From: a candidate division WOR-3 bacterium
GTDB taxonomy: Bacteria; Hydrothermota; Hydrothermia; Hydrothermales; JAJRUZ01
Direction: 5' to 3'
Length of the DNA stretch: 64,000 nucleotides
NCBI GenBank assembly: GCA_039803925.1
Contig: JBDRZL010000005.1
Location: 9,969-73,968, forward strand
Part shown: positions 7,581 through 25,482 of the stretch, in pieces
How the letters are laid out: each line of letters opens with the position of its first letter
How positions within the stretch are numbered: the first letter of the stretch is position 1
Translations under genes and position numbers: made by a program
Notes under the pieces: model-generated
Seen by the model: only the letters and a program-made list of their open reading frames with translations
Told to the model about the DNA's origin: nothing
The model's database searches: none

Positions 7581-7656
7581 TAACCTTGACTTTTGTAAAA
7601 TTTTTTTTTAAAATTGTAGCTTGAAAATTTTTAATTTAAAATAATAAAATATTAAA

Positions 7657-8043: not shown

Positions 8044-9338
8044 TTTTAAAACTGTTTATTGTTTCATATCTCGTATTATTTGAGGGATATTCAAAACTTT
8101 TTAAGTTTGTGAGACCCGTTAAAAGTGTTGCTATCGGCAATCCTGATATTTTGGGAATGAGACTCCTTTCTGACCGTGAGGTTTTACTGAATGCTCTGAA
8201 GGAAGGTGTAACAAATATGATTATTTTTACAGATAGAGGAACTCAGGAAATAGAATGTGTAATTAAAAAAAGAGATCCCCTCCAATTTTATAAACCTAAA
8301 ACTTTGAGGACTGATGTTTGGGTTCTTGAAGTGGAAAGAAATGTTAATTCAGATTATGGATGGGACTGGCTAAAGCAACTCGGATTTTCAGAATATAAAA
8401 TTCCAGAAACTTTTCCTCTTGATATTGGACCCATAAAGAGAACAACTAATTTATCAAGTACACTTAATTTTCTTGAGGAAAAGGGTATATTGAAAATTTT
8501 ATCAAATCCATCCCTTGTGGTTCTTGAAGACAAAACCTCAGAATTTCTGAGTGGAGGAGAGATACCTGTGGTTATAGCACAGGCACTTGGAACTGCTACT
8601 ATTGAATGGAAAGAATACGGTGTAAAACTTAAAATTTCAGGTAAACTTGATGATGAAGGTTATATAATATTAAATTTGGAACCAGAAATTTCTGATCTTG
8701 ATTATGCAAATGCTGTTACTTTTCAAGGTTATGTTATACCTGCTATAAGAAAGAATAATGCAAAAGTTGAAGTTAAACTCTTACCAGGTGAGAGTATTCT
8801 GATAGGGGGGTTAAAAAGGAAAAATGTTCAGGAATTTAGAAGTTATTTGCCAATCCTCGGTAAAATTCCTTTACTCGGGAAGCTACTATTTTCAAGGGTT
8901 ACTCGTAATGATGTTATAAAGGATGTGGTTTTTATTGTCACGCCTTATGTATTACCCTATGAAAGAGGAGCAGCACAGATTCATATTTTTAAAGGGACAA
9001 AAACAAAGGAATTTTATATTCCTACAAAAATTATTGATGGTAATACCTATTTTGAACTTTCAGATTTATTTAAAAAAGAACTTGATATATGGTATAAATG
9101 GATAGAGGAAGGAAAGTTAGCTGAAATAAATTTTGGTAAAAGAAAATCTTTTCTTTCAGTTGAAAAGTCAACTCTTGAAATAGATGGGGTTGCTTTTCCG
9201 CTTCAGCCTGAGGTGAAAATTCTTGATAAGGTTTTATTTGTTCCCTTTTCCTTTTTTGAAACAATTGGTTTATCAGGTTTCTGGGACGCTTACACAAATG
9301 ATTTCTATGTTCTTGAAACCTTGAAAGAAAAAGAGTAG
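8040..9338 (+). CDS. cpaC: Tad/Flp pilus secretin (CpaC/RcpA family) with C-terminal copper-amine-oxidase-N-like stalk domain
   Basis: N-terminal pilus-formation domain (VKSVAIGNPDILGMRLLSD...GTQEIECVI). Secretin core ending in LPILGKIPLLGKLLFSR...VVFIVTPYVL. The extra ~120-aa C-terminal domain (STLEIDGVAFPLQPEVKILDKVLFVPFSFFETIGLSGFWDAYTNDFYVLE) resembles Cu_amine_oxidN1. Confidence 0.75.
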   Translation: MILKLFIVSYLVLFEGYSKLFKFVRPVKSVAIGNPDILGMRLLSDREVLLNALKEGVTNMIIFTDRGTQEIECVIKKRDPLQFYKPKTLRTDVWVLEVERNVNSDYGWDWLKQLGFSEYKIPETFPLDIGPIKRTTNLSSTLNFLEEKGILKILSNPSLVVLEDKTSEFLSGGEIPVVIAQALGTATIEWKEYGVKLKISGKLDDEGYIILNLEPEISDLDYANAVTFQGYVIPAIRKNNAKVEVKLLPGESILIGGLKRKNVQEFRSYLPILGKIPLLGKLLFSRVTRNDVIKDVVFIVTPYVLPYERGAAQIHIFKGTKTKEFYIPTKIIDGNTYFELSDLFKKELDIWYKWIEEGKLAEINFGKRKSFLSVEKSTLEIDGVAFPLQPEVKILDKVLFVPFSFFETIGLSGFWDAYTNDFYVLETLKEKE

Positions 9339-9340
9339 TT

Positions 9341-11515
9341 ATGAAGAAATATGCTTTGATAGGTGCAAAGGGAGGTGTAGGTGTATCTGTTTTATCATCA
9401 CTTTTATCCTATGAAATCTCTCTGAAAAAAAAGAGTGTACTTTTAATTGAGGCAGAAAATCACGGGGATCTCCCCTACATTTTCGGATCAGATTCAAAGA
9501 AGAGTTTTAAAGAAGCCCTTGATAGTTTCAAAAAGGAGAAAAAGTTTAAAGGTGAATTTATATATGGCTATTCTTCTTATCCTTCAAAACTCCATATGAT
9601 ATTTTCTAAAACTGGTGAAATATGGGATAAAGAATATGATTTTATAGGTCCCTTATTAAAGAGAATTGAACCTGATTATGATTATGTGCTCTTTGATTGC
9701 GGGCACACCATTGATGAAAAAATTTTGAATATTCTTGATATTGTGGATCTTATTTTTGTTGTGATGAAGAATGATTTTCTATCACTTGCAAAGTCAAAGA
9801 ATTTAAGGGAAATTTTCAGATTAAGGTATTATCCTCCCCAGAAGATAGAATATGTAATAAACTTCTTTAATGAAGATGGAATTTCCTTGGAAGAAATAGA
9901 AAAGATTTTGGAAAAAGAGATTCTCTTTCTTTTGCCAGAAGATGAATCAATTTTGAGTGTAACAGAGTTTGGTTTTGATACGGGAAAAGAAAAAATTTCT
10001 CAGGTTTTTAAAGAGAAAATTAAAGAGATATCAGCTTTTATTTTAGGTGAATTAAGAAGAGAAGATTTTATGGAAAAAAGAAAGGAGGTAAAAAGAGACT
10101 TTTTAAGTGGTATTTTTAGAAGAAGGAAAAAAGAGGATAGGGATGAAAAAAAAGTAGCAGAAGTAGTGACTGAATCAAAACCAGGTGAAAGTGTTTTGGT
10201 GGAAGAAGTTGTAGAAGAGGTTCCCTATGAAGTAAAAAAGTTAATCCATGGACATATTGTTAAAGAAATGACATTATCTGGTGAACTTACAGCAACAGTA
10301 GAAAGTGCTACATATAGAGAAGAAATTAGAAAAAAGGTGGAAAAGTTAATAGTAGAAAAATTAGATGAATTTAATATTCCTTTACCATCTCAGGAAGTTA
10401 GAAAAAAATTTGTGGAGGATATGATAAAAGAAATACTCGGACTTGGCCCACTTGAAGATCTTCTCGCTGATCCTGAGGTTACTGAAATTATGGTTAATGC
10501 TCCTAATAAGATTTACATAGAAAAAGGAGGAAAAATTTATCTGACTGATAGAAGCTTTTTCAATGAAACTCAACTGAGGATGGTGATAGAAAGAATTGTT
10601 GCACCAATTGGAAGAAGAGTTGATGAGGCTTCTCCTCTATGTGATGCAAGATTACCAGATGGTTCAAGAGTAAATATAACACTTCCCCCTGTTTCTATTG
10701 ACAGTCCTACGATAACTATAAGAAAATTCAGGAAAGAACCTTTCACCTATCAGGATCTTGTTAATTTTGGTTCAATAGCAGATTTTATGGTTGATTTTTT
10801 AAAGGCTTGTGTCTATGTAAAGAAAAATATAGTTGTGGCAGGTGGAACTGGTTCAGGTAAAACAACCCTTTTAAATGTTTTATCTTCATTCATTCCTGAG
10901 GATGAAAGGATAGTTACAATTGAGGATACTGCTGAGCTAAGATTGCAGCAACCTCATATAGTAAGACTTGAAGCAAGACCACCCAACATAGAGGGAAGAG
11001 GAGAAATTACAATAAGAGATCTTGTTAGAAATGCTTTAAGAATGAGACCCGATAGGATAATAGTTGGTGAGTGTAGAGGGGGAGAAGCTCTTGATATGCT
11101 CCAGGCTATGAACACAGGTCATGAAGGCTCTCTTACAACGGTGCACGCTAACTCCCCTCGGGATACATTATACAGGCTTGAGACAATGGTTTTAATGGCT
11201 GGAACTGAGCTTCCTGTTTCAGCAATAAGAAATTACATAGCCTCAGCTATTGATTTTATAGTTTTTGTGGAAAGAATGAGAGATGGAAAAAGGAGGGTTA
11301 CAAAAATATCAGAGATTACAGGAATTGAGGGAGATATAATAACAATGCAGGATATATTTATTTTTAAACAGAAGGGAGTCTCCGAAAAAGGTGAGATAAT
11401 AGGTGAATTTATGGGGACTGGAATAAGACCAAAAGTTCACGAAGAGTTTGAAATTAAGGGTGTTAAAATTGATCAGAGTATATACTATAAAGGGAGGAAA
11501 GAGGAATCATGGTGA
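9341..11515 (+). CDS. cpaF: Fusion protein: CpaE-like ParA/MinD-fold domain with degenerate P-loop, joined to a CpaF/TadA secretion ATPase
   Basis: The N-terminal ~245 aa follows the CpaE pattern (GAKGGVGVS...YDYVLFDCGH...DLIFVVM) but has GVS where the canonical Walker A has GKT. A charged linker follows. The C-terminal ~420 aa is VirB11/CpaF-like (GGTGSGKTTLLN Walker A; IVGECRGGEALDMLQAMNTGHEGSLTTVHANSP). Confidence 0.8.
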   Translation: MKKYALIGAKGGVGVSVLSSLLSYEISLKKKSVLLIEAENHGDLPYIFGSDSKKSFKEALDSFKKEKKFKGEFIYGYSSYPSKLHMIFSKTGEIWDKEYDFIGPLLKRIEPDYDYVLFDCGHTIDEKILNILDIVDLIFVVMKNDFLSLAKSKNLREIFRLRYYPPQKIEYVINFFNEDGISLEEIEKILEKEILFLLPEDESILSVTEFGFDTGKEKISQVFKEKIKEISAFILGELRREDFMEKRKEVKRDFLSGIFRRRKKEDRDEKKVAEVVTESKPGESVLVEEVVEEVPYEVKKLIHGHIVKEMTLSGELTATVESATYREEIRKKVEKLIVEKLDEFNIPLPSQEVRKKFVEDMIKEILGLGPLEDLLADPEVTEIMVNAPNKIYIEKGGKIYLTDRSFFNETQLRMVIERIVAPIGRRVDEASPLCDARLPDGSRVNITLPPVSIDSPTITIRKFRKEPFTYQDLVNFGSIADFMVDFLKACVYVKKNIVVAGGTGSGKTTLLNVLSSFIPEDERIVTIEDTAELRLQQPHIVRLEARPPNIEGRGEITIRDLVRNALRMRPDRIIVGECRGGEALDMLQAMNTGHEGSLTTVHANSPRDTLYRLETMVLMAGTELPVSAIRNYIASAIDFIVFVERMRDGKRRVTKISEITGIEGDIITMQDIFIFKQKGVSEKGEIIGEFMGTGIRPKVHEEFEIKGVKIDQSIYYKGRKEESW

Positions 11516-12345
11516 CTTTAATTTTGATTATCCTTACAATTATAGGTGCTATTTATATTTTAATAATTTTTCTTGAAGAATTTTTTATCTATTATATAAG
11601 GAATATTCAGCAAAAACTGGATCCTGCTGATTTTCCTGTTAAAAATTTTATTTTACTCGAACTCAGACTTTTATTTGGTCTTTCCATTATTACATATCTC
11701 TTTCTAGGTAAAACTTTAGCAACTAAAATTTTTGTCATTCTTTTATTTACAGTTCTTATAATAATTTTCTTTCCTCAGTATGCTTATACGATAAGAAATA
11801 AATGGATAGAGAAATTTAATGACCAACTGGAGGAAGGGATGAGATTAATTGTGAGTGGATTGAGGGCTGGTCTTGGTTTTAATCACTGTTTGAGGATAGT
11901 GGTTCAGCAGATGCCTCCCCCAATGAAAACAGAATTTAAAAGGGTTCTTGATGAGGTCTCTCTTGGAGTACCTCTTGAAGAAGCTCTTCATCATCTGGAA
12001 GAAAGGATTCCTTCCAGAGAACTTAAAATATTTACAAGTGCGGTAATTTTGCAGAGGAAAACAGGTGGTTCTCTTGTGGATGTTCTTTCAGGTATAGCAG
12101 ATACAATAAAGGCAAGAAGAAGATTGAAGAGAAGGATAGATACACTTACTGCTGAAGGAAGGTTATCAGCTATAGTCCTTACTCTTTTACCCCTTTTTTT
12201 GTTAATTTTATTAAGAATAACACAACCAGACCTTTTTGCCCCTATGCTTGAAGAACCGATAGGTATTCTAATGCTTTTTATTGCAGCCTTCCTTGATTTA
12301 ATGGCAGCCCTTTGGATAAGAAAAATAATTACTATAGAAATATGA
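11509..12345 (+). CDS. tadB: Tad pilus inner-membrane platform protein TadB (T2SSF domain)
   Basis: T2SSF domain: GLRAGLGFNHCLRIV...ALHHLEERIPSRELKIFTSAVILQRKTGGSLVDVL. Flanking TM segments. Confidence 0.8.
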   Translation: MVTLILIILTIIGAIYILIIFLEEFFIYYIRNIQQKLDPADFPVKNFILLELRLLFGLSIITYLFLGKTLATKIFVILLFTVLIIIFFPQYAYTIRNKWIEKFNDQLEEGMRLIVSGLRAGLGFNHCLRIVVQQMPPPMKTEFKRVLDEVSLGVPLEEALHHLEERIPSRELKIFTSAVILQRKTGGSLVDVLSGIADTIKARRRLKRRIDTLTAEGRLSAIVLTLLPLFLLILLRITQPDLFAPMLEEPIGILMLFIAAFLDLMAALWIRKIITIEI

Positions 12346-13244
12346 TACTTTTAATTTTTATATTATCTTTTATTGCTTTTTATTACCTTGTTCTCGCTTT
12401 TATTCCTTCACCTGAAGAAGTGGCTTTATCTTCACGTCTCGAGAGATTAAGGAGAAGGAGGGTTAGAATTGAAATTGCCTCAAAAATTATTGCCTACCTG
12501 GCTCCCTTTGCTGAGATAATCGTTAAGATTTTAAAAAAATATTTACCAGAAGATTATTTAAATTCTCTTGAAAAGAAAATGGAAATGGCTGGAGAAAGAG
12601 GTAAATCAGTAGAAGCAGTTCTTATGGAAAAAGTAATAAGTGGTTTTGTATTTTACATTGTTTCAATTATAATAATGATACTTATTTTTAATGCACCTTT
12701 TTCTTTTAGTCTTATTATGGGATTTGTAGTTCTTTTTGCGGGATTTTTTTATAAGGATTTTAGTTTAAATCAGGAGATAAAAAGGAGACATTATTTAATA
12801 CAAAAAGATTTGGGTGATGCATTGGACCAATTAAACACCGCAGTACAAGCAGGCCTGGGATTCAATGCAGCTTTCCAGTATGTGACAGAGGCTATGCACC
12901 CATGTCCACTGAGAGAAGAATTTGCCTTAATGCTCTCTGAGCTTAGATTGGGTAAAAAAAGGACTGATGCTTTGAGAGCCCTTGCTGATAGAACTCAACA
13001 TCCGGATCTTACACTTGTTGCAATTACAATAGCCCATGGAGAAGAGCTTGGTGCCCCAATAACCCAGACATTAGCTTCTCTTGCTGATGAAGTTAGAAGG
13101 AAGAGATGGGATCAAGCAGAAGAAAGAGCTGCAAAAACCCCTGTTCTTATAGTAATACCCACTATACTTTTAATTTTACCTACCATATTTATTATAATTT
13201 TTGGCCCTTTTGTTTTATATTATCTATTCGGAGGAGGTATGTAA
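12312..13244 (+). CDS. tadC: Tad pilus inner-membrane platform protein TadC (T2SSF domain)
   Basis: DALDQLNTAVQAGLGFNAAFQYV...LRLGKKRTDALRALADRTQHPDLTLVAITIAHGEELGAPITQTL with TM helices. Confidence 0.8.
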   Translation: MDKKNNYYRNMILLIFILSFIAFYYLVLAFIPSPEEVALSSRLERLRRRRVRIEIASKIIAYLAPFAEIIVKILKKYLPEDYLNSLEKKMEMAGERGKSVEAVLMEKVISGFVFYIVSIIIMILIFNAPFSFSLIMGFVVLFAGFFYKDFSLNQEIKRRHYLIQKDLGDALDQLNTAVQAGLGFNAAFQYVTEAMHPCPLREEFALMLSELRLGKKRTDALRALADRTQHPDLTLVAITIAHGEELGAPITQTLASLADEVRRKRWDQAEERAAKTPVLIVIPTILLILPTIFIIIFGPFVLYYLFGGGM

Positions 13245-13245
13245 A

Positions 13246-14019
13246 ATGAAAGGTTTTTTATTTTTTATAATACTCACAAATCAGAGCCCTGAGGAAAGGG
13301 CTGATCTTTACATAAAGCTTGCGGATTATAAAAATGCTGTAATGGAGTATTCTGATTTGATTTTTAAAAAACCTGAAGATAAAAAATTAAGAGAAAAACT
13401 CTTATTCAGTGCAAATAAATATATTGAAAAAAATTTCCTGAAAATGGATAAAGAAATTTTGGAAAAGGCTTTATCAAAGTATAGAAATGGAGAGCTTGAT
13501 TCAGCTTTATATTTATCAAAAATTTTATACGATAAATTTTATTTTGAGCCAGAAGTAGTTACTTTTTATCAAAGATGCTTATGGACAGTTGATACTCTAA
13601 GAAAACTTTATTCCCTTTTAATAGATACTGAAAGGAAAAAAGATTATCAAGCAGCCCACAGGTATGCACTGGAGATTAAAAATATTTATCCCAGTTATCC
13701 TGAAATTGATGAAAAAATAAATTATTACTTTAGTAAAATACCGAAGGTTGAGGAAAAAAGACCCCTCGTAGTTGAAAGAAGGGAGGTAGTGAAAAAACCT
13801 GTTGAAAAACCTGTTGAAGCTGAAAAGGCTATTAAGGTGGAAGAAGATGTTCAGGCAAAAGTTCAGGAACTTTATAAAAGAGGTGTTACACTTTACAGTG
13901 AGGGAAAATTAGAAGAAGCAAGGGAAATTTTTAGAGAGATACTCAAAATTGATCCTCAAAATACAAAAGTAAGGAGAAATCTTGCAGTAATAGAAGAAAG
14001 ATTAAGGGGGAGAAGATAA
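13246..14019 (+). CDS. TPR-like repeat protein (TadD-like accessory?)
   Basis: Helical repeat sequence, C-terminal TPR-like segment LYSEGKLEEAREIFREILKIDPQNTKVRRNLAV. Sits in the Tad operon. Start set to ATG 13246. Confidence 0.45.
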   Translation: MKGFLFFIILTNQSPEERADLYIKLADYKNAVMEYSDLIFKKPEDKKLREKLLFSANKYIEKNFLKMDKEILEKALSKYRNGELDSALYLSKILYDKFYFEPEVVTFYQRCLWTVDTLRKLYSLLIDTERKKDYQAAHRYALEIKNIYPSYPEIDEKINYYFSKIPKVEEKRPLVVERREVVKKPVEKPVEAEKAIKVEEDVQAKVQELYKRGVTLYSEGKLEEAREIFREILKIDPQNTKVRRNLAVIEERLRGRR

Positions 14020-15302
14020 TGGAAAGAAAAAACTTTATTATTACAGGGCTTTTTATATCTGTAATTTCTTTAGTAGTTTTATTATATTTCTTTGGAAGGT
14101 GGGTTTTAAATGAAACAAATAGATGGCTAACAAGTGATGCGGAAAATTTTTCCAATGCAGTTTTTAGTAGTCTTGTGGAAAGTATAAAAATTCCCTGGGA
14201 AACAGGAGATGAGATAAGTTTAAGTTACATTGTGTCTCGTATGAAAAGGGAAAATAGAGATATTGAAGAAATTTCAATAATTGATAGAGAAAATACTATA
14301 ATTGCCCATACAAATACCGACTATATTTTGAGCAAATTTAAATTTCCTGATGAAGCTCCCTTTGATTTAAAAGGGGTTGGTTTTTCAATAAGGAATGATA
14401 AAGTATATATATTTAAGCCCACTTTAAGCACCCTTGGTGATACTTTAGGGTATATATACTTTACATTAAAACCAAGATCTTTAAGAGAGGGAAGAGATTC
14501 TTTAAGGAGGATTCTTTTTCTTTTTGTTGTAGCACTATCTGCACTTTTCCTCTTTTTATCTGCAATACTTGTTTTTATTTCCACTCCAGTTGAGAGAAGG
14601 AAAATAATTTATGAACCCAAATATTCTGATTTCCTTTCTTATCATATTCCTGAATCTGGTGGATATAAACCAGAGGGATGGTCCCTTTATCCTTTTTATG
14701 AAAAAGGAGAAATACCAAATATTTTTTATAAAGTTTTTAGAATTTCTCCTGAAAGATGGGGAATCTTTAGTTTCCAGATAATAAGTGGTGGTTATACTTG
14801 GTCAATTTTATTTCCCTTTATAAATTCTTTTCTCGATAAATACCTTTTCACAGAGGAGGACCCTTTTGTTGTTTTGAAAAATTTACAGGATGAATTTTCA
14901 AAGCTTATGATAAATGAAGGAATTGTTGAGGGTTCTCTTTTATTTTTTGATGAAGAAAAAGGAAAGATAAGAGGAGCAAGTTTTGGTGACCATATTCTTT
15001 ATAGAAAAAGAGAAAGTGAATTAATTCCAATCTATGAACCTGCTAAATTTTATGATTTTTCAAACAGAGTATCAGAAGTAAAGTATTTTGAAACTGAAAG
15101 AGAAGACTTTTTAATTTTAGTTACTGGTAATTTTTACAGATGGTTTAGATTTAATGAACTTATTGAAAAAATTAAAGATATAAGGGATGAAGAGGATATT
15201 AAAAAAGTTATTGAAAATTTTAAATTTTTGTATGAAGAAAGTAAAATTAAAGAAGGCATTTTGCTTTTATTCTTAAAGAAAATAAAGGAGGTAGAGGGAT
15301 GA
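14019..15302 (+). CDS. Membrane-anchored sensor-like protein with degenerate PP2C/SpoIIE-type phosphatase domain
   Basis: Two TM segments flank a ~135-aa extracytoplasmic domain. The C-terminal part follows a PP2C/SpoIIE-like pattern (GIFSFQIISGGY...GASFGDHILYRK...EDFLILVTGNFYR). Start overlaps the upstream stop. Confidence 0.35.
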   Translation: MERKNFIITGLFISVISLVVLLYFFGRWVLNETNRWLTSDAENFSNAVFSSLVESIKIPWETGDEISLSYIVSRMKRENRDIEEISIIDRENTIIAHTNTDYILSKFKFPDEAPFDLKGVGFSIRNDKVYIFKPTLSTLGDTLGYIYFTLKPRSLREGRDSLRRILFLFVVALSALFLFLSAILVFISTPVERRKIIYEPKYSDFLSYHIPESGGYKPEGWSLYPFYEKGEIPNIFYKVFRISPERWGIFSFQIISGGYTWSILFPFINSFLDKYLFTEEDPFVVLKNLQDEFSKLMINEGIVEGSLLFFDEEKGKIRGASFGDHILYRKRESELIPIYEPAKFYDFSNRVSEVKYFETEREDFLILVTGNFYRWFRFNELIEKIKDIRDEEDIKKVIENFKFLYEESKIKEGILLLFLKKIKEVEG

Positions 15303-17872
15303 ATTTATTTGTCCTTTTTCTTTTGTCCCAAACTATTTCAACACTTGTAGGAGGAGATTATATAAAGTCTTTTCATTCTGGAAAATATGTATACGAGGTC
15401 TCTCAGAGGGGTGTTGCTATTATAAATGTAGAAAAACCACAGGATCCTTTTACCGAATATGAAATACCAACACAGGGAATATCCCTGGATCTTGCAATCT
15501 CAGGTAATAATCTTTATATTCTTGATTCACAGGAAGGAATTATAGTTTATTCTTTAAAAGAGAGAGTTAAGAAAAATACATTCAAAGTTAAAAATGCAAA
15601 TTCAATTATTTCAATTCCTCCTTACTTATATGTCGGGACATCTGATGGTTTTATTGAAATATACGAAGTAAATGGATTTAATTTAAAGGGAAAAGGGAAA
15701 ATTAAGTTAAATGGGCCTCTAAATTCAATTCAAATTGCTCCACAGGGATTAGTAGCACTTGTTTCTGACTCAATTTTATCTCAGATTAAATTTTTGAAAG
15801 AAGGTAACATAACCATAGGTGAAGAATATGTATCTCCATCAAAGCTTACAAAATTTTTAGTTCTTGATACCATCATTTTATTTGGTAAAAAGGAAGGAGG
15901 ATTTTACCTTGGAAAGTTTTCAAAACCTTTTATAGAAATAGTAAAGGAAATTATTCCAACCTATGTAATTACAGGCCTTCAGATCTATGGTTCCCAGGTT
16001 TTTGTGGGAACAGAGGATGGAAGGTTATATCTACTTAGTTACCCTGATTTGAATATTATTTCAACAGCCCAATTGGTTGGTCAGATTAATGATTTTGTTG
16101 CTATTGGTAATATACTTATGGCTTCGGTTGGAAGAGCTGGTATTTCTGTTTTAAGATTACCAGATCTGGAAGAAATCAAAACTCTTGGTGGTTTTGGTTC
16201 CCTTGTATCTGCCAATGTAATGACAAAGGAAGTGCTTTATCTTCTTGATCCTCTTCTTGGAGTAAGATTTATATCTTTCTTTTCTCCCCACGATCCTCAA
16301 AAAGAAGAAGAAACTGAGCTTTTTGGAACTTTTGTGAAGATTTTAAAATTTAAAGATTTGATAATAGCAGTTATAAGGGAAGGTGGAATATGGATTTTAA
16401 ATGCTGATAGAATAAATGAGATAAAAGGGTTTCTCCCAATAGAGGGTTTTATTAATGATTGTATAGACATTGAAAATAAAATTTTTGTTGCTACTGAGAA
16501 GGGTATTATTGGTCTTGAATATAAAGATGGAAAACTATCTGAAACTTTTAATATTAAGACAGATGCGAAAACTTTAAAGTTAATTCAGATTGGTAAAAAA
16601 TTTGCAAGTCTTCAGGAAAATGGTCTTTTTATTTATGATTATGATGGTAAAATCATAGAGCACAAAATGGACATCTCTCCATACTTATACACCTTAAGAG
16701 GTAGAGAGGTTTTTATATGTGATATGACTGGTAAGATTTACAAATTTGAAGAGACACTTCAAAATATGAGTTTTCTTTTTTCTATAAAAGTTCCTGTTAC
16801 TGATTTTGTTGTTGGTAAAAACGAAATATATGTTGCCGATGCAACTAATAAAATAAAAGTTTACTCAATACCCGCAAAAAATTTGAAGTTCAGTTTTGAT
16901 TTACCTGAGCCAGTTTATTATTTAAAAATGAAATATCCTTATTTATTTATCTATGGTGGAAGCGATAGAATTTTCATATATAATGTTGGGAAGGATGTTC
17001 CTGAGTTTGTAAATAGTATAAGAACGAAGAAAGGTATAAGATCACTTGATTTTTCTGAATCAGGTATTTATGTTGGGGAAGAAAGATTTATAGAAACTTA
17101 CAGATTCTATAGATTTGAAGCACCAACAGAAATCTCATATTATTTAACTTACGGAGAACTTTACAGAGCGGTGCCTTTGAAAGAAGATAATGTCCTATAT
17201 ATTGCTGGAGGTTCTTCGGGTTTAATAGGAATTGATTTAACAAATATTTATTCTCCTGAACTCTTCTTTTATCACATACCTTCAGAGGGGGTAACTTATG
17301 ATATTCTGATTTCTCAGAGGTTTTTAATCTGTGCTAACCTTGAAGGAGGAATAGAGGTTTTTGAACTTCTCTCTAATAAAAAACCTAAGTTTTTTACAAG
17401 GATTAAGGGTGATGTTCTTTCAATTGATGTAGTTAATAATACTTTTCTGGTTGCTGGAGATAGAACGGGCATTGTAAAGGTTTATGATATGCGTGGAGGT
17501 GTTTTTTCAAAGATTTCAGAATTTTCTGAGTTTAAATTTCCTGTGCTTGATCTTGAATCATTTGGAAACTATGTTTATGCCTCTTTTGGGGATGAAGGTA
17601 TAGGAATAATTGATTTAAGTGTGCCTCACTTTCCGAGATTGAAAAAAATAATAAATCCTGGTTTTCCTGTATTTAGATTAAAAATTCTCGATGATAGAGT
17701 ATTTGCAATATGTGGTGCTTATGGTATTATTGAGTATAAACTAAAAGAAGATGGAGATTTAATTTATTTAAATCATATAGATACTCCCGGAAATGCCCAA
17801 GATGTAAATAAAATGGAGGATTATTATTTAATTTCTGATACTTATGGGCTTGAAATATATAAAAGGAGGTAA
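15299..17872 (+). CDS. Large beta-propeller repeat protein (LVIVD-type repeats) embedded in Tad locus
   Basis: 857 aa. N-terminal hydrophobic segment, then at least 12 repeats of G-hydrophobic-x-hydrophobic-hydrophobic-(D/N/E/S) blades (GIIVYSLKE, GFIEIYEV, GRLYLLSYPDLN, GISVLRLPDLEEI, GIEVFELLSN, GIVKVYDMRGG, GIGIIDLSVPHFP, GIIEYKLKEDGDL). ATGA overlap with the upstream gene. Confidence 0.55.
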   Translation: MNLFVLFLLSQTISTLVGGDYIKSFHSGKYVYEVSQRGVAIINVEKPQDPFTEYEIPTQGISLDLAISGNNLYILDSQEGIIVYSLKERVKKNTFKVKNANSIISIPPYLYVGTSDGFIEIYEVNGFNLKGKGKIKLNGPLNSIQIAPQGLVALVSDSILSQIKFLKEGNITIGEEYVSPSKLTKFLVLDTIILFGKKEGGFYLGKFSKPFIEIVKEIIPTYVITGLQIYGSQVFVGTEDGRLYLLSYPDLNIISTAQLVGQINDFVAIGNILMASVGRAGISVLRLPDLEEIKTLGGFGSLVSANVMTKEVLYLLDPLLGVRFISFFSPHDPQKEEETELFGTFVKILKFKDLIIAVIREGGIWILNADRINEIKGFLPIEGFINDCIDIENKIFVATEKGIIGLEYKDGKLSETFNIKTDAKTLKLIQIGKKFASLQENGLFIYDYDGKIIEHKMDISPYLYTLRGREVFICDMTGKIYKFEETLQNMSFLFSIKVPVTDFVVGKNEIYVADATNKIKVYSIPAKNLKFSFDLPEPVYYLKMKYPYLFIYGGSDRIFIYNVGKDVPEFVNSIRTKKGIRSLDFSESGIYVGEERFIETYRFYRFEAPTEISYYLTYGELYRAVPLKEDNVLYIAGGSSGLIGIDLTNIYSPELFFYHIPSEGVTYDILISQRFLICANLEGGIEVFELLSNKKPKFFTRIKGDVLSIDVVNNTFLVAGDRTGIVKVYDMRGGVFSKISEFSEFKFPVLDLESFGNYVYASFGDEGIGIIDLSVPHFPRLKKIINPGFPVFRLKILDDRVFAICGAYGIIEYKLKEDGDLIYLNHIDTPGNAQDVNKMEDYYLISDTYGLEIYKRR

Positions 17873-17875
17873 AAA

Positions 17876-19003
17876 ATGAGACCTAATGTAAGGAGACTTT
17901 TAATAGCTTTATCCCTGGCAGGGATAGCTGCACTTTTATTAATAAGTTATATTCAGGATGTAGAAAGGAAGACTCTAATGAAAGGTGCCCCTGAGAGAGT
18001 TCTTGTAGCAAAAAAAGATATAAGCGCAAGAACAATTATCTCAGAAGATCTTGTAGAATACAGAGAAATTCCTAAACCTTTTATAGAACCACTTGCAGTT
18101 TCAGATATAGGAGAGATTATAGGTATGGTTGCAATAACTGATATAAGAAAGGGGGAACAGATAACAAAAAATTTGCTTTTACCATTACAGACATGGACTG
18201 TTCTTTCTTCCTTTGTTCCCGAAGGTTTTAGAGCTATAACAATTCATGTGGATGAGGTTTCAGGAGTCGGAGGGTTAATACTTCCTGGAGATGAAGTAGA
18301 TGTAGTAGCAACCTTTTCTCTTGAAGATTTAAGGAGATATATTCCAGAACAGGAGCTTGAAAGATATTTAAGAAGTCCTCAACTTTACAGGGTAAGAGGA
18401 CCTTATTCTTCCTTTGCAACAATTACATATAAGGCAGTTAGAGTACTTGCAGTTGGAAGATCACTCCTTGCTTTGCCACCAACAGTTACAGAGAAAAAGA
18501 CAGGTTTTATGGGAATGCCAGAAACACAAGAATTAGAGAGGGTAACTTCAGTTACACTTGCGGTCCCAAAGGAAATTGTAAAAGAGCTTTCTCTTCTTGA
18601 GAAAATTTCAGATATAAGACTTGTTTTAAGGTCTGTGAGAGAGATAAAACTACCAGGTGAGGATACAATAATAGAAAAACCCTTAACTGTATTTGATATC
18701 TTAGAAAAATATAATCCAAAACCAAAACCTAAAAAAGTTGCGAAGGCAGCACCAACTCCAGAGGTTTCTCCTTATTCTTATATAAATATATATAAGAGAA
18801 CAGATTTGGAACAAGTAAAACTAAGAGGAAGTGAAGTAGTTGAACAAAAACCTTGGGGAGAAGGAAGAAGAAAAGGATTTGAACCTGGTCAAATTATGGA
18901 AACTTTTATGGGTTCTTATATGAAGGGAATAGAAAATGTTTTAAAGCAGGCAGGTGTTAAAGTCCCTGCTAATTTACAGGTTCCCTGCGATACCTGTTTT
19001 TGA
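17876..19003 (+). CDS. cpaB: Flp pilus assembly protein CpaB/RcpC (SAF domain)
   Basis: N-terminal TM followed by SAF-domain signature VLVAKKDISARTIISEDLVEYREIPK. Flp-pilus-assembly C-terminal domain. Confidence 0.7.
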   Translation: MRPNVRRLLIALSLAGIAALLLISYIQDVERKTLMKGAPERVLVAKKDISARTIISEDLVEYREIPKPFIEPLAVSDIGEIIGMVAITDIRKGEQITKNLLLPLQTWTVLSSFVPEGFRAITIHVDEVSGVGGLILPGDEVDVVATFSLEDLRRYIPEQELERYLRSPQLYRVRGPYSSFATITYKAVRVLAVGRSLLALPPTVTEKKTGFMGMPETQELERVTSVTLAVPKEIVKELSLLEKISDIRLVLRSVREIKLPGEDTIIEKPLTVFDILEKYNPKPKPKKVAKAAPTPEVSPYSYINIYKRTDLEQVKLRGSEVVEQKPWGEGRRKGFEPGQIMETFMGSYMKGIENVLKQAGVKVPANLQVPCDTCF

Positions 19004-20538
19004 TAAAATATATTAAAAAAATAAGTCCTGAAAAAATAGTTAAAAGATTCGAATATTTTGTAAAAAGGAAATCAAAAACTGAAGCCTTTTTAACTTTTTT
19101 ATCCTTTATAGGTTTAAGATTTTTCTTTGAAACTTTATTAGAATCTGCACATGCTGTTGAAAATAAATTTGATTTTATTTTACATTTTTACCTCTTTTTT
19201 ATAGCACTTTTCATTTTAATTTATATTTATTTAAGGTTTTTTTTTGAAAAAGAATTTATATTTAAACTTATATGTTATGGTTTTTTTATTATAATTTTAC
19301 CCCCTTTTGTTGATTTTATACTATCAGGTGGAAAAGGTTTTGTTTTGAGCTATTTAACAAAAACCTCACAAATACCTACTATATATTTTTCTCTCTTTAC
19401 TTCACCTTTCACAGTAACCTTTGGTGCAACACCAGGAATTAAAATTGAAGTTTTAATTATTGATTTTTTTCTTTCTATTTATCTTTTTTTTAGATTAAGT
19501 GGAATAAAAAAAAAGATTATACCGATTTTAAATTTTTTTATCTTTCCTTTTTTCCCTCTTCTTTTGAGCTCAATTTTTGCTATAGAAGAACTATATTATT
19601 ATTCACTTGTTACTCCGATTTTTATTGCAAAGCCTACAATTCCAAATCTTTTTTTTATAATAATAATCTTAGTTCTTTCTTTTTTTGCTTTTAAAGAATA
19701 TTTTCCAGAAAGAGTAAATATTTTTTCCTTTATATTTCCTTTTATAACTCTTTTAGTAATTGTTTTATATTCTATTAAAATTAGTGAATTTGTTCCGAGA
19801 TTTCTCTTTTTGCCTGGTAATATCCTTTATATTATATTACAAACTCTTTCGGTATTTTTTTTATATATATCCTTTAATAGAGAAAAATTGTACATTTTAC
19901 CTTTAGTCCTATCCTTTCTCTTGATTTCTATCCAATCTTCAGCTACAATAGTTGCTTTTTTTGTTTTTTCATTATGTTTTTATGTTTACAGAAATTACCC
20001 CTTCTTATATAACTTTTTGTTTTTAACTTATTCTTTAATTATAGGACTTACTTTCTTTGCTCTCGGAAGTAAAATTCCTTTTCCTGATTTTAAAAATCAT
20101 ATTTTCAGATTATCAGCGGATTTCTATAAGAAAGAGAAAAAATACTCTAAAGCAATTAATCTTTTATCAAAGATTTCCAAAAAAGAATTCTACGATTACT
20201 TTAAATTATCAGAGTTATCTTTTTTAAATGGGGATTTTATGGATTTTGATATTTTTCTTGAAATTTCACAGATTAAATATATTTCAGCCCCTCCTCACTA
20301 TAGATCAATAGATAATAGGGTAGATTTCTGGAAACTGGAAAAGGAAAGATTCTTGAAAGAAAAAGATTATTCCCTTTTATACATGACAGCACTCTCTGTT
20401 TTAAATCCAAGAGTTGAAAGTGAAAATATACTTAAATTTCTTTATGAATTGAGTGATAATATTGAAGAGAGAGAAAAATTAAAATTGAAAAAATTTTTAG
20501 CTATATATGGGTATAAAAAGTTTTCCACATACCCTTGA
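19000..20538 (+). CDS. Polytopic membrane protein (about 12 TM) with C-terminal soluble helical domain; unknown function
   Basis: Highly hydrophobic F/I/L-rich segments through about aa 360, then a charged helical C-terminal region. ATGA overlap with cpaB. Confidence 0.4.
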   Translation: MIKYIKKISPEKIVKRFEYFVKRKSKTEAFLTFLSFIGLRFFFETLLESAHAVENKFDFILHFYLFFIALFILIYIYLRFFFEKEFIFKLICYGFFIIILPPFVDFILSGGKGFVLSYLTKTSQIPTIYFSLFTSPFTVTFGATPGIKIEVLIIDFFLSIYLFFRLSGIKKKIIPILNFFIFPFFPLLLSSIFAIEELYYYSLVTPIFIAKPTIPNLFFIIIILVLSFFAFKEYFPERVNIFSFIFPFITLLVIVLYSIKISEFVPRFLFLPGNILYIILQTLSVFFLYISFNREKLYILPLVLSFLLISIQSSATIVAFFVFSLCFYVYRNYPFLYNFLFLTYSLIIGLTFFALGSKIPFPDFKNHIFRLSADFYKKEKKYSKAINLLSKISKKEFYDYFKLSELSFLNGDFMDFDIFLEISQIKYISAPPHYRSIDNRVDFWKLEKERFLKEKDYSLLYMTALSVLNPRVESENILKFLYELSDNIEEREKLKLKKFLAIYGYKKFSTYP

Positions 20539-20595
20539 CAAAAATACCCCTTTAAATTTATAATTATATTGAGGGTAAGATAGTGGGAGGTAAAA

Positions 20596-20769
20596 ATGAA
20601 GGTAATAAAATTAATATATAACGAAAAGGGTGAGGCCGCAGTTGAATATGCGGTCTTAATTGGAATTTTTGGATTTCTTGGTATTTTTCTATTAAATTAT
20701 GCTCTTTTCCTCCTCGGAAGTGATCTCCTTTATAAATGGTATAATTTTTTTTACTCATTAAAACCATGA
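20596..20769 (+). CDS. flp: Flp/Fap family pilin (57 aa)
   Basis: RBS GGAGG at 20586. MKVIKLIYNEKGEAAVEYAVLIGIF with the Flp motif G-x-A/T-A-V-E-Y-A then a hydrophobic helix. Below the ORF-track length cutoff. Confidence 0.7.
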   Translation: MKVIKLIYNEKGEAAVEYAVLIGIFGFLGIFLLNYALFLLGSDLLYKWYNFFYSLKP

Positions 20770-20918
20770 AAATCGTAAAAAGGGAAGAAGGTGCTGTTGC
20801 TATCGAGTATGCTCTTATTATAGGAGTGATTGCCCTATTTTCTTATTTGGCCTGGAAAATGTTAGGTTTTGTTTTAAGACTTGTTGTAATGAAGCTTTTA
20901 TATGTTTTATTATGGTAA
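20766..20918 (+). CDS. flp: Flp/Fap family pilin (50 aa)
   Basis: MKIVKREEGAVAIEYALIIGVIALF. ATGA overlap with the previous pilin. Confidence 0.7.
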   Translation: MKIVKREEGAVAIEYALIIGVIALFSYLAWKMLGFVLRLVVMKLLYVLLW

Positions 20919-20931
20919 AGGAGGTCTGAAT

Positions 20932-22347
20932 ATGAGTAAAAAAAGAAGAGGTCAGGTAATGGTAGAGGCAGCAATTGGTATGGCTTTATTTTTGATGCTC
21001 ACTCTTGGTGCCATTGAAACTGCAAGATTTGCTTTGAGGAGAATTCAGATTACTTATGCATCCTTTCAGGCAAATAGGGTTGCTATTGTAAATAAAGGTG
21101 ATACAACTGCTGTTAGAAAGGCACTTCAATCTATTTCAACACACATAAAAGATGCTAAATTTGAGTTAAAGGATGAAGGAGATGAATATTCTTTAGTTGT
21201 TAGAAGAACCTTTCACCCCTTGATTCCTTTTGTTAATGTGGATTCATTAGTTTTTGTAGGTTATTCAAGACTTCCGAAAGGTCATTTTCAGAATAAAGAA
21301 TTTCCTTATAAATATAAAGGTTATAGCACGTATTATCCTGCTTTATGGAATTCTTCAGATATGGAAGATGAAAAGGAAGCTGGAATTTTAACTTATGATA
21401 GGTATTTAAGGGCTTTTATAAGGTGTGAGAATAATAGGTATGAGAGGTGGAATCCTGGGTGGGGACCTTTTGGGGAATATGGTGGTGGAGGTGAAGCAGA
21501 AGTCAAGGTTGGTGGAAAGGATGAACCTAATGATCCTTTTCATCTTGGAACATGGTATCCACCTTATGGAATTCTGAGAAACAAAAATCCGGAGAAAGAT
21601 AGAACAGGAAATCAAGCTTTAATTGACCAGTATTATTTTGTTGAAGCAATGTTAATAGGACCATCTTTTTCTCCCTTTTTGACTTTTTATCCTGAGAATA
21701 AACCTTACTGGTCAAGGGCAATTACTGGATTTGGTCATGGTAATAATATAAATAAGGGTAGTGATGCTCATCCTTACAGGGGAGATTTCCTGGAATATTT
21801 TTATTCTCAGGGATATGCTATACCAGGATGGTTTGGTTTCTGGCCAAGGTATGAGGCATTATGGTGGACACCTGTAGGTTGTGCTGACCTTGTTACAGGA
21901 ATTTACTATATAGGAATGGGTAATCAGTGGTTTTCAGATCCATGGGGAGAGTATTACAAAGATGAGGACAATTATATTTCAGGGTGGGGAACAGCATATG
22001 CTGATGCCTGTTGGGATCCGATTCGTACTCCATGGGGATGTATCCCTGGAGCAGGAGTTGGTGATGATTTTCAATTTACAATTTTTAATGGATGGTTTGC
22101 AAATTACAGGGGAACCGGCTCACCCTGGGACTGGAAAGGGACAAGGAGACTTTATGATGCTGCTTTTTATGTAGCTACTTTTAATGAGATTGAATGGATA
22201 TATATGGTTGAAGGTTTTATGGTAGATCATCCTGATCACGGAAAATCTCTTCCTTTTAAGGATGATTTAAGGGGATGGGGGACAAAGTGGGATTGTTTAT
22301 GGTATGAAAGCCCATGGGATGAGTGGGATGGCACAGAAAAACAATAA
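20932..22347 (+). CDS. TadE-like pseudopilin with large Trp/Gly/Tyr/Pro-rich C-terminal domain
   Basis: RBS AAAGGAGG. N-terminus RRGQVMVEAAIGMALFLMLTLGAIE is the TadE motif. The C-terminal ~300 aa carries about 24 Trp (WNPGWGPF, GWFGFWPRYEALWW, SPWDWKG, RGWGTKWDCLWYESPWDEWDG). Confidence 0.6.
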   Translation: MSKKRRGQVMVEAAIGMALFLMLTLGAIETARFALRRIQITYASFQANRVAIVNKGDTTAVRKALQSISTHIKDAKFELKDEGDEYSLVVRRTFHPLIPFVNVDSLVFVGYSRLPKGHFQNKEFPYKYKGYSTYYPALWNSSDMEDEKEAGILTYDRYLRAFIRCENNRYERWNPGWGPFGEYGGGGEAEVKVGGKDEPNDPFHLGTWYPPYGILRNKNPEKDRTGNQALIDQYYFVEAMLIGPSFSPFLTFYPENKPYWSRAITGFGHGNNINKGSDAHPYRGDFLEYFYSQGYAIPGWFGFWPRYEALWWTPVGCADLVTGIYYIGMGNQWFSDPWGEYYKDEDNYISGWGTAYADACWDPIRTPWGCIPGAGVGDDFQFTIFNGWFANYRGTGSPWDWKGTRRLYDAAFYVATFNEIEWIYMVEGFMVDHPDHGKSLPFKDDLRGWGTKWDCLWYESPWDEWDGTEKQ

Positions 22348-22358
22348 GGAGGTGTGAT

Positions 22359-23378
22359 ATGAAGAAAAGAAAAGGTGCAATTTTAGTTTTTGGTATTTTT
22401 TTCATGTTGATAGTTTTTGCTGTTATGGGTTATGTTTATGAAATGGGAAGAATGACAATTGCAAAGATGAGGGCACAGAATGCGGCTGATGCTTCAGCAA
22501 TGGGAGCTCAAACTGTTCTTTCCAATTTAAGGAATATAGCAACAACTCATTATATGACAGCGGATCTTTTCAGAAGAATTGCAGTTACAACAACATCAAG
22601 AGATTTTCCTTTAAGTATGCCGTGGTTATATATATATCTTATAGGTTATTCCTGGTATAAGAAAGATCTTTTTGTTAATGATTTACCGGATGAAACTGCG
22701 GAAAACTTTGTTAAACTTTATCATTTTCTTTTTCATATTCAGGATTTTGCTGTTACAAGAATGCTTGCTGCTTATGATTCCAAAATATTTTTCAGAGATT
22801 TTATAAAAGAGGAAGCAGAGAATCATTTTCCAGTAACAAGAAATAGAATGAAATGGGTTGCTTGGTTTATGAGTTACTTTAATTTATATGATGAAAATCA
22901 GGTTGAAGGTAACGAAATTGGATGGGTCAATCTAAGATTTGATAAGAACGGTCCAGGGTGGGCTCCACCTGGTTTAAGGGTTGATTATGGTGAGGAAGTT
23001 GATGGGCCTAACCCCCACAGGAGAATAAGAAATAAGCATGATGAGATTGAAATTAATAAAAAACTTAGTAGAGCTTACAGTGAAGCTTATGTCCTTATAC
23101 CACCTTCCAATTTTTTGATGAGGACTTTTGTTTCAAGAAACTGGGGTAAAATTGGTGCAATTAAAGAACCTTTCAGTTTTCTTGAAGGTTTTCCATTTGT
23201 TGTTAGAAGTGATGCTGCTTCGGGTCCCAAAGAATTTTACATAAGAGTGGGTTTGCCAGATATTATACCTTTAATAGGCTCACTTCAGGAAGACGGATAT
23301 TGGACATTTCCACAGCTTATACCTACAATAAGAGTAGAAGGTAATAACCCCATTGAGGGTCAATGGCCTTATCATTAA
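22359..23378 (+). CDS. TadG-like protein (Flp pilus-assembly TadG N-terminal domain)
   Basis: RBS AAGGAGG. MKKRKGAILVFGIFFML...AKMRAQNAADASAMGAQTVL matches the TadG_N pattern (RxxLQNAADAAALAGA). Confidence 0.6.
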   Translation: MKKRKGAILVFGIFFMLIVFAVMGYVYEMGRMTIAKMRAQNAADASAMGAQTVLSNLRNIATTHYMTADLFRRIAVTTTSRDFPLSMPWLYIYLIGYSWYKKDLFVNDLPDETAENFVKLYHFLFHIQDFAVTRMLAAYDSKIFFRDFIKEEAENHFPVTRNRMKWVAWFMSYFNLYDENQVEGNEIGWVNLRFDKNGPGWAPPGLRVDYGEEVDGPNPHRRIRNKHDEIEINKKLSRAYSEAYVLIPPSNFLMRTFVSRNWGKIGAIKEPFSFLEGFPFVVRSDAASGPKEFYIRVGLPDIIPLIGSLQEDGYWTFPQLIPTIRVEGNNPIEGQWPYH

Positions 23379-23395
23379 ATAAAGGGGGTTTTAAA

Positions 23396-24154: not shown

Positions 24155-24157
24155 AAT

Positions 24158-25477: not shown

Positions 25478-25482
25478 TAACT

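Follow-up and report, generated by a model that had tools for sequence, protein, structure and literature searches.

The question raised by this locus is what two large genes without a counterpart in model Tad systems are doing in the middle of a Tad pilus operon. The two open reading frames, here ORF1 and ORF2, lie between the platform genes and cpaB in a stretch of 64,000 nucleotides (hereafter the window; GC content ~31%) from an uncultured hot-spring bacterium of the WOR-3/Hydrothermales lineage. An earlier note, made from the sequence alone, had taken them for a sensor-like membrane protein with a degenerate PP2C domain and a large propeller protein, and the coordinates given there (14019-15302 and 15299-17872) proved to be exact. 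The present analysis points to a pseudophosphatase and a probably exported multi-propeller protein, inherited together with the genes of the pilus machine, and the question of their role in it is answered with about even confidence in favor of accessory, non-catalytic subunits.

Two Genes under Constraint in a Complete Tad Locus

The forward strand of the window carries a complete Tad/Flp (type IVc) pilus locus from 7657 to 26198, with all expected components clustered according to their Pfam and NCBIfam matches (table 1). From 7657 onward, the gene order is a CarboxypepD_reg-like lipoprotein, CpaC, CpaE-CpaF, TadB, TadC, a TPR protein, ORF1, ORF2, CpaB, and a 512-aa membrane protein.

ORF1 and ORF2 are real genes under constraint. 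They are the longest possible ORFs at their positions, and the frame of ORF2 permits no upstream extension. The TPR gene and ORF1 share the junction TAATG (1-nt overlap), ORF1 and ORF2 share ATGA (4-nt overlap), and a 3-nt spacer separates ORF2 from cpaB. An AGGAGG-like (Shine-Dalgarno) motif is located ahead of each of these three junctions (GGGGGAG, AAGGAGG, and AGGAGG, respectively). The tight junctions pointed out in the earlier note are real and recur in the orthologous loci, where the genes overlap or lie 1-2 nt apart. Within the operon, no internal promoter or terminator signal exceeded the shuffle expectation, and neither a mobile-element signature nor a composition break was found at 14-18 kb.

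Word-indexed protein searches showed nine close homologues for each protein (62-96% identity), all from metagenome-assembled genomes (MAGs) of WOR-3/"Ca. Hydrothermales," an order now placed by NCBI under Caldifarciminales. Lengths vary by 3 aa at most across ten orthologues. Against the closest separate species (locus L008; dS ~0.6-0.8, unsaturated), the ratio of nonsynonymous to synonymous substitution rates (dN/dS) amounts to 0.077 in ORF1 and 0.096 in ORF2, with dS at ~0.65. The respective values are 0.069 for CpaB, 0.06-0.10 for the pseudopilins, and 0.035-0.043 for CpaEF, TadB, TadC, and the secretin. The low ratios indicate that both genes are under strong purifying selection.

Conserved Context and Distribution

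The earlier note had named a lack of conservation beside Tad genes as something that would refute its reading; the pair is present in every related locus. The order TadB-TadC-TPR-ORF1-ORF2-CpaB is found in all distinct related loci inspected (L001/L009, L002/L012, L004, L008, and L010), and the short contig L003 shows part of it; two further loci (L013 and L014) were retrieved via ORF2 homology only and stand outside the gene-order comparison. In the most distant locus (L004), identity to the window proteins falls to 37% for ORF1 and 39% for ORF2, compared with 60% for TadB, 59% for TadC, and 52% for CpaB.

The genes occur in only three species representatives of GTDB and at three loci of JGI metagenomes, all of the same lineage, and no distant Tad-linked relative was detected at the sensitivity of the scans of GTDB representatives and JGI metagenomes. 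Beyond these, the closest CpaB proteins share only 30-34% identity. In their loci, the three nearest outgroup Tad loci (L005, L006, and L007), ORF1 and ORF2 are not present and cpaB adjoins cpaC. As judged from these sequences, the pair is a lineage-specific acquisition. Other oddities of the locus coincide with it, that is, the separation of cpaB from cpaC, a receiver-less CpaE-CpaF fusion, an extension of CpaB, and a Cu_amine_oxidN1-like tail of the secretin.

The nearest of the outgroup loci (L005:1307-5398, CpaB identity 34%) encodes a row of three proteins with FHA/Yop-YscD_cpl domains, flanked by tadC and flp. This is an indication that signaling-type (Ser/Thr-phospho) modules get recruited into Tad loci.

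ORF1, a Predicted Membrane Pseudophosphatase

The two-helix topology and the degenerate SpoIIE/PP2C domain proposed earlier for ORF1 were borne out by hydropathy, by fold and profile searches, and by alignment of the motifs. In the AlphaFold2 (AF2) model, built from a nine-sequence alignment, residues 216-424 have a predicted local distance difference test score (pLDDT) of 70-90. Foldseek against PDB gave 142 matches at E<=1e-3, the best 50 of which are all PP2C-fold chains. They include RsbX (3w40; TMt 0.76, E 6e-9, prob 1.00), SpoIIE (5mqh), Stp1, tPphA, the RssB C-terminal domain (3es2 and 3f79), and plant PP2Cs. According to the model, the C-terminal domain has the alpha-beta-beta-alpha sandwich fold of PP2C.

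Family models of SpoIIE/PP2C in Pfam and NCBIfam do not match ORF1 (E<=1 for the window protein, E<=0.1 for ten members), and the family profile found nothing among the PDB sequences at E<=10. An exhaustive search of 1.84 billion representative proteins with this profile returned full-length matches in only two clusters, that of the family itself and P0019 (36% identity), both of which come solely from WOR-3/Hydrothermales. With weak matches that are still significant for the whole library, the profile also reaches two genuine SpoIIE-domain sensor phosphatases (P0021, library-wide E 3e-5; P0023, E 6e-4) and a Cache-bearing fragment (P0022, library-wide E 1.2e-4). The hhalign values of the ORF1 C-terminal domain against SpoIIE domains range within 86-91%.

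When aligned with hhalign and MAFFT, the four metal-binding motifs are all degenerate. GGDxxD corresponds to P233-N-I-F-Y-K238 (aspartates replaced by I235 and K238), aDvxGHG to F252-Q-I-I-S-G-G258 (Q253), TDG to T369-G-N371 (G370), and EDD to K411-E-G413 (E412/G413). The metal-binding aspartates of all four are missing in 10 out of 10 family members; P0019, the most distant one, shows variant substitutions (E at 253 and E-N at 412/413). Therefore, ORF1 is predicted to be a pseudophosphatase, which would be unable to dephosphorylate and would have to act by binding. The flanking residues G258, Y259, W261, R374, W375, and E412 are invariant. Such invariance round a dead site is the pattern of a pseudoenzyme keeping its binding surface, and ORF1 is thus best described, from its sequence family, as a pseudophosphatase that retains a conserved surface at the former active site.

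The periplasmic domain is probably Cache-like. Matches to dCache_1, sCache_4, and Cache_WalK occur in three, two, and three of the ten members, respectively (best 7e-4), all below the gathering cut-offs (14.5 bits against 45 for dCache_1, at best 19.9 against 22.1 for sCache_4, and 13-14 against 27 for Cache_WalK). The domain aligns with P0022 (hhalign 93.9%), which itself barely passes sCache_3_2 (28.5 bits, cut-off 28.4), and with the sensor domain of P0021 (86.8%). The topology, with ~145 aa between two transmembrane helices, and the order of secondary structures fit Cache, at a pLDDT below 50 in this domain.

Both halves of ORF1 align to P0021, a protein with two transmembrane helices around a sensor domain, followed by HAMP and SpoIIE. 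ORF1 has no HAMP linker; ~28 residues, predicted to be disordered, separate its second helix from the PP2C domain. The most fitting view is that it derives from an ordinary sensor phosphatase of the Cache-(HAMP)-SpoIIE type, with loss of both HAMP and catalysis. P0021, the closest active relative, was considered as a Tad-locus protein and rejected, as its neighbors are TPR, SurA/rotamase, and BamA-like genes. The ancestor of ORF1 would therefore have been a generic sensor phosphatase.

ORF2, a Predicted Exported Multi-Propeller Protein

ORF2 had been described as a propeller with at least 12 LVIVD-type blades, and the remote-homology searches agree with this assignment, as they do with that of PP2C for ORF1. 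The propeller appears to be larger than proposed. In the AF2 model, the protein is all-beta with 72 strands (DSSP), and it was parsed by eye into ~21 units of ~40 aa. Hydrophobicity and glycine show autocorrelation peaks at a lag of 40-42 (z ~3). The blade signature is G-x-h-Y-h-A-x(3-5)-G-h-x-h-h-D-h-s-x-P, and conservation is even across all blades. The model thus suggests 20-21 four-stranded LVIVD-type blades, arranged in about three propellers.

The mean pLDDT is 65.5, rising to ~90 in the C-terminal third, and a break of low confidence is located at residues 297-333. In the third propeller, a repeat hidden Markov model (HMM) made five consecutive matches (iE 1e-16 to 1e-21), having been seeded from these same blades. 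Iterated from the C-terminal blades, it found 9 of the ~21, so that the blade count rests on the AF2 strands and the manual parsing.

The Pfam LVIVD model aligns at residues 756-784 of the window protein with a score below threshold (16.5 against 20.2 bits), yet each of the ten family members has a match at E<=0.01 (best 4.8e-8). Generic propeller models are matched in large number as well, and in the second propeller region there are sub-threshold Pfam matches to Beta-prop_ACSF4 (residues 391-561) and PorZ_N_b_propeller (residues 385-446). Foldseek gave 1900 propeller-type matches at E<=1e-3. DDB1 and SF3B130, two triple-propeller proteins of 21 blades, match best (E 1e-22), with TM-scores of only 0.2-0.33. 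Given these scores and a predicted template modeling score (pTM) of 0.39, only the multi-propeller plan and the blade count are supported, and homology to DDB1/CPSF160 was rejected.

An N-terminal anchor had also been proposed. The N-terminus is indeed hydrophobic; an anchor is the less likely reading of this segment. It reads MNLFVLFLLSQTIS up to the possible cleavage site, followed by TLVGGDY (MNLFVLFLLSQTISTLVGGDY), with a hydrophobic core of 7-9 residues and then the small residues T-I-S, and it did not score as a transmembrane helix. It is probably a short Sec signal peptide and not a membrane anchor.

A second LVIVD propeller protein (653 aa) is encoded on the minus strand at 32838-34799, outside the pilus locus, in a cluster with two unassigned ORFs (31004-32803 and 34848-36245). 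It matches Pfam LVIVD with 32 bits and the ORF2-family HMM with E 4e-19, and it has a similar short hydrophobic N-terminus. Another ORF of the minus strand (47347-49920) was rejected as a paralogue, being an NHL-repeat propeller (2.5e-23) with a BLASTP E value of 0.07 to ORF2. The equal length of the two proteins (857 aa) is a coincidence.

Relation to Known Systems

The claim that the two proteins are without counterpart in model Tad systems was sustained. Neither matches any Tad/Cpa/Rcp family of Pfam or NCBIfam at E<=1, and the curated Tad model of the type IV filament superfamily (TFF-SF) consists only of tadA/B/C/Z, rcpA/B/C, flp, and tadD/E/F/V (PMC6668835). Full-text literature searches retrieved no report of PP2C, pseudophosphatase, or propeller parts in Tad systems.

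ORF1 resembles SpoIIE/RsbU/RsbX-type sensor phosphatases (PF07228) in its predicted succession of transmembrane helix, periplasmic Cache-like domain, second helix, and cytoplasmic PP2C fold. It differs from them in lacking HAMP, the metal-binding Asp motifs, and any Pfam SpoIIE match at E<=1, and it is encoded in a pilus operon and not beside STAS/anti-sigma partners. With the PP2C pseudophosphatase adaptors (RssB C-terminal domain and, in eukaryotes, TAB1 and PHLPP2) it shares a fold kept without the metal center, presumably for protein binding. Unlike ORF1, these proteins are soluble and act in proteolysis or kinase signaling; none is anchored in the membrane and provided with a periplasmic sensor domain, and none has a link to type IV filament machines. 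For PHLPP2, the pseudophosphatase character is documented (PMC12002173).

In their proposed role, ORF1 and ORF2 would be analogous to PilM-N-O-P of type IVa pili (T4aP), GspL-M-C of type II secretion systems (T2SS), and CpaB-CpaI of the Caulobacter Tad system. In these, inner-membrane proteins that have a cytoplasmic and a periplasmic domain, together with periplasmic partners, link the motor and platform to the secretin, and their genes likewise sit between platform and secretin-associated genes. There is no relationship in sequence or fold, since those connectors are built of actin-like, ferredoxin-like, HR, and beta-sandwich domains and not of Cache, PP2C, and propellers.

ORF2 shares its ~40-residue, four-stranded blades and their signature with LVIVD (PF08309) proteins, whereas the window protein stays below the gathering score. 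The three seven-bladed propellers of DDB1, a triple-propeller protein like SF3B130 and CPSF160, are comparable with the 20-21 blades of ORF2; proteins of the DDB1 type are eukaryotic nuclear scaffolds for which homology is not claimed. As a predicted exported propeller of an envelope machine, ORF2 is similar to PilY1/PilC (tip-associated in T4aP), to BamB (an eight-bladed lipoprotein of outer-membrane assembly), and to PorZ (a double propeller of the type IX secretion system, T9SS). It differs from these in blade number and gene context and in the lack of a lipobox (no Cys in the first 20 residues), a vWA domain, or a C-terminal sorting-type domain (CTD). Its NCBIfam scores are 19.6 bits for BamB (cut-off 423) and 21.2 bits for PorZ (cut-off 260), and Pfam gave no Neisseria_PilC or vWA match. 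Cache, PP2C, and LVIVD folds are ordinary, and pseudo-PP2C adaptors are known; what is new is two accessory Tad families in a small thermophilic clade.

Possible Role in the Pilus Machine

The reading favored here, with about even confidence, is that ORF1 and ORF2 are co-inherited, lineage-specific, non-catalytic accessory subunits of the Tad machine, serving as a trans-envelope adaptor or scaffold. ORF1 would be placed in the inner membrane with a cytoplasmic N-terminus, a first helix, a periplasmic Cache-like domain, a second helix, and a cytoplasmic PP2C-fold domain. ORF2 would be exported by Sec, and its ~21 blades would fold into about three propellers in the periplasm. These could form a large platform bridging the periplasmic domain of ORF1 and the conduit of CpaB and the secretin. 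In the cytoplasm, the pseudophosphatase domain would dock on another component, for which the CpaE-CpaF motor and the TadB/TadC platform are the most plausible candidates. The pair would thereby fill the part played elsewhere by PilM/N/O/P, GspL/M/C, or CpaI. What the analysis shows is that the genes are real, syntenic, narrowly distributed, and under purifying selection, together with the folds, the predicted topology, and the missing catalytic residues; that ORF2 resides in the periplasm, that the pair is attached to the machine, and which proteins it binds are inferred.

Both proteins are encoded in the machine operon and not in the pilin operon, and they are co-inherited with the former. 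In a recent in situ structure from Caulobacter, Tad systems are reported to use diverse, non-homologous connectors between the subcomplexes of the outer and inner membrane, of which CpaI is one that many species lack (PMC13170226). The sole WOR-3 isolate in culture (strain sy37) has a diderm envelope and pili and is non-motile (PMC12285271).

Several points weigh against an adaptor or scaffold. The architecture of Cache, transmembrane helix, and PP2C is a signaling architecture by origin, and within it residues 36-160 of the periplasmic domain are modeled with a pLDDT below 50. The export of ORF2 is predicted, and a basic n-region is missing from its signal peptide in most orthologues. The arrangement of the propellers to each other is unreliable (pTM 0.39). 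Since a distant ORF2 paralogue is encoded elsewhere in the window, LVIVD propellers are not intrinsically pilus parts. Finally, ORF1 and ORF2 evolve at ~2x the rate of the core motor and platform genes, at a rate like that of peripheral Tad parts, which fits an accessory or regulatory role equally well as a structural one.

The main and close rival, which overlaps with the adaptor or scaffold and is possible although less probable, is a sensory regulator that works by binding. The Cache-like domain of ORF1 would sense a small ligand, the envelope state, or ORF2 itself (as a co-receptor or a surface/tension sensor). The signal would pass via the second helix to the pseudo-PP2C domain, which would sequester or release CpaE-CpaF or a STAS-type partner and so switch extension/retraction or assembly, with both proteins being dispensable for assembly itself. 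The homology of both ORF1 domains and of their architecture to genuine Cache-HAMP-SpoIIE sensor phosphatases speaks for such a regulator, as do the faster evolution of the pair, the FHA-domain proteins of the outgroup locus L005, and the presence of the RssB C-terminal domain, a PP2C pseudophosphatase adaptor, among the structural matches. PP2C pseudophosphatase domains of this kind act as regulated adaptors. On the other hand, the HAMP linker has been lost and ~28 predicted-disordered residues take its place, the Cache assignment is sub-threshold, and a partial scan of ~40 window ORFs, with some small ORFs left out, revealed no STAS, anti-sigma, or kinase partner. Moreover, regulation would not call for a partner of 857 aa encoded in an overlapping frame.

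ORF2 could be an exported adhesin or pilus-associated factor (PilY1/PilC-like) or a surface LVIVD protein, with ORF1 as its membrane partner or chaperone. T4aP use the propeller protein PilY1 as a pilus tip adhesin, the Pfam family description calls LVIVD repeats cell-surface repeats of bacteria and archaea, and the second LVIVD protein of the window lies outside the Tad locus. Such a function is nevertheless unlikely, since ORF2 is found between the platform/TPR genes and cpaB and not with Flp/TadE/TadG behind their separate consensus promoter. It also has no prepilin-type leader, no vWA, PilY1/Neisseria_PilC match, T9SS CTD, or PEP-CTERM, and it ends with its last blade. Very unlikely is an unrelated insertion without a pilus role, including the variant that ORF1 is still active via a non-canonical site, even if no other Tad system sampled contains the pair and no homology to a Tad family was detected. 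While their sequences diverged to 37-39% identity, the genes kept their position, their length, and their junctions with overlapping codons; purifying selection acts on them about as it does on CpaB, and the region lacks a mobile-element signature or composition break. Residual activity is contradicted by the loss of four out of four metal-binding motifs, including the aspartates that bridge both metals.

A further reading is rather improbable and is offered as a speculation, namely a kind of trans-envelope control module so far not recognized in type IV filament machines. In this lineage, the CpaE/TadZ-like part is without its receiver-like domain and is fused to the single bifunctional ATPase. 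The membrane pseudophosphatase would have taken over the docking of the motor and would couple the state of a giant periplasmic ring of three propellers (pilus occupancy, tension, or ligand binding) directly to CpaE-CpaF, thus gating extension versus retraction by binding, without phosphotransfer.

Organization of the Tad Locus

Table 1. Features of ORF1 and ORF2 and of the surrounding Tad locus (positions in the window)
Feature	Position	Strand	Description and basis
ORF1, 427 aa, ATG start	14019-15302	+	Predicted inner-membrane Cache-like/pseudo-PP2C protein
ORF1 transmembrane helix 1, residues 6-24	14034-14090	+	Kyte-Doolittle 19-residue window 2.64; AF2 long helix 3-53
ORF1 periplasmic domain, residues 25-168	14091-14522	+	Cache/PAS-like (tentative); sub-threshold Pfam and profile linkage
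ORF1 transmembrane helix 2, residues 169-187	14523-14579	+	Kyte-Doolittle 2.93; nearly invariant in nine closer members
ORF1 cytoplasmic domain, residues 216-424	14664-15290	+	Predicted PP2C/SpoIIE fold; AF2, Foldseek, profiles, motif alignment
ORF2, 857 aa, ATG start	15299-17872	+	Predicted exported LVIVD-type multi-propeller protein
ORF2 short hydrophobic N-terminus, residues 1-17	15299-15349	+	Sequence and family alignment; possible cleavage between TIS and T
ORF2 blades 1-7, residues 21-298	15359-16192	+	Predicted first propeller; AF2 DSSP strands, manual repeat parse; boundaries approximate
ORF2 blades 8-15, residues 299-619	16193-17155	+	Predicted second propeller region; AF2 strands, manual parse; boundaries approximate
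ORF2 blades 16-21, residues 620-857	17156-17869	+	Predicted third propeller; best predicted (pLDDT ~90), clearest LVIVD-like repeats
Small protein, 128 aa, first operon gene	7657-8043	+	CarboxypepD_reg-like fold; Pfam CarbopepD_reg_2 1.3e-5; lipobox-like FSGGC near N-terminus
Secretin CpaC/RcpA, 432 aa	8040-9338	+	Pfam Secretin 1.3e-32, T2SS-T3SS_pil_N 2e-13, Cu_amine_oxidN1 1e-7
CpaE (ParA/MinD-like)-CpaF (TadA ATPase) fusion, 724 aa	9341-11515	+	AAA_31 residues 2-152 (2.4e-10), T2SSE residues 367-641 (1.3e-63)
TadB/CpaG platform protein	11509-12345	+	Pfam T2SSF 1.6e-21
TadC/CpaH platform protein	12312-13244	+	Pfam T2SSF 5.4e-20
TPR protein (TadD/pilotin-like position)	13201-14019	+	Pfam TPR_14 1.7e-9, TPR_2 6e-8; NCBIfam weak TPR matches only
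CpaB/RcpC, 375 aa	17876-19003	+	TIGR03177 4.6e-39 (residues 8-271); Pfam RcpC 2e-20, SAF 2.5e-12
Polytopic membrane protein, 512 aa	19000-20538	+	~10 transmembrane helices, helical C-terminal tail; last gene of first transcription unit
Sigma-70 consensus TTGACA-18-TATAAT	20535-20564	+	12/12 matches, consensus match only; directly 5' of first Flp-like gene
Two Flp-like genes	20596-20918	+	Pfam/translations
TadE-like	20902-22347	+	Pfam TadE (two TadE matches in locus, 6e-7 and 3e-8)
TadG-like	22323-23378	+	Pfam Tad 1e-7
Second TadE-like	23363-24154	+	Pfam TadE
Lipoprotein-like ORF, 168 aa	between second TadE-like gene (ends 24154) and Flp genes (from 24703)	+	
Five further Flp pilin genes	24703-25656	+	Pfam Flp_Fap 5e-8 (value for the Flp genes of the locus); translations
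Prepilin peptidase	25653-26198	+	Peptidase_A24 8e-20

The start of tadC is likely the ATG at 12342, which overlaps the tadB stop, because the orthologues have 300-301 aa, and that of the TPR gene the ATG at 13246, because its orthologues have 245-253 aa. With these starts, all genes from 7657 to 20538 abut or overlap their neighbors by 4 nt at most. Promoter-like sites are located at 7586-7650, ahead of the first operon gene, whose 128-aa product is kept at the same position in L001, L002, L008, and L010.

The secretin is short, and the Cu_amine_oxidN1-like domain at its C-terminus (residues 322-423) is unusual for RcpA/CpaC. The CpaE-CpaF fusion is kept in all Hydrothermales loci, L001 and L002 included. 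A K/E-rich linker joins its two halves, and the CpaE half opens at the P-loop domain, without the receiver-like N-domain which the outgroup CpaE of L006 has. CpaB carries a C-terminal extension of ~100 aa (residues 272-375), consisting of a PK-rich linker and a small module that ends with CDTCF; outgroup CpaB proteins have mostly 220-300 aa, compared with 375 aa here. The extension could be a docking site for ORF2.

The 512-aa polytopic protein, whose gene overlaps the cpaB stop, is a third unassigned component of the Tad operon. It has no family match in Pfam or NCBIfam, its tail is perhaps TPR-like, and its gene keeps this place in all related loci, following cpaB in L001, L002, L008, and L010 among others. 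As a guess, it may be a pilin-modifying or O-antigen-ligase-like enzyme.

Judging from the perfect sigma-70 consensus ahead of them, the pilin and minor-pilin genes may be transcribed as a unit of their own and at a high level. The Flp-type pilin genes amount to seven, in two groups. Two copies of the second group (24703-24873 and within 25047-25313) have identical mature sequences, which indicates a recent tandem duplication. Directly 3' of the prepilin peptidase gene lies a gene (26285-29260, forward strand) for a metalloprotease of the thermolysin/fungalysin type (M4/M36; 991 aa), which contains two NIDO domains, and in L001 a gene with a NIDO match likewise follows the Tad locus.

Implications

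The first in situ structures of Tad machines date only from 2025-26 and are reported to stress differences of the connectors between species (PMC13170226). How these machines link motor to secretin, and how they switch one ATPase between extension and retraction, is still being worked out. ORF1 and ORF2 define two protein families now annotated as "hypothetical" and would allow a better annotation of genomes from WOR-3/Hydrothermales; as only a few uncultured thermophiles possess these families, their practical value is limited. Should the cultured piliated WOR-3 isolate carry the locus, it might be open to experiments.

A predicted dead PP2C sensor and a ~21-blade propeller, placed where other machines encode alignment proteins, represent a natural experiment in the recruitment of parts. 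If the proposed role is true, a deep-branching thermophilic lineage would add a bacterial pseudoenzyme co-opted as a machine subunit. If the triple propeller does gate the motor, no pseudoenzyme subunit and no propeller scaffold would have been described in a Tad machine before this pair.

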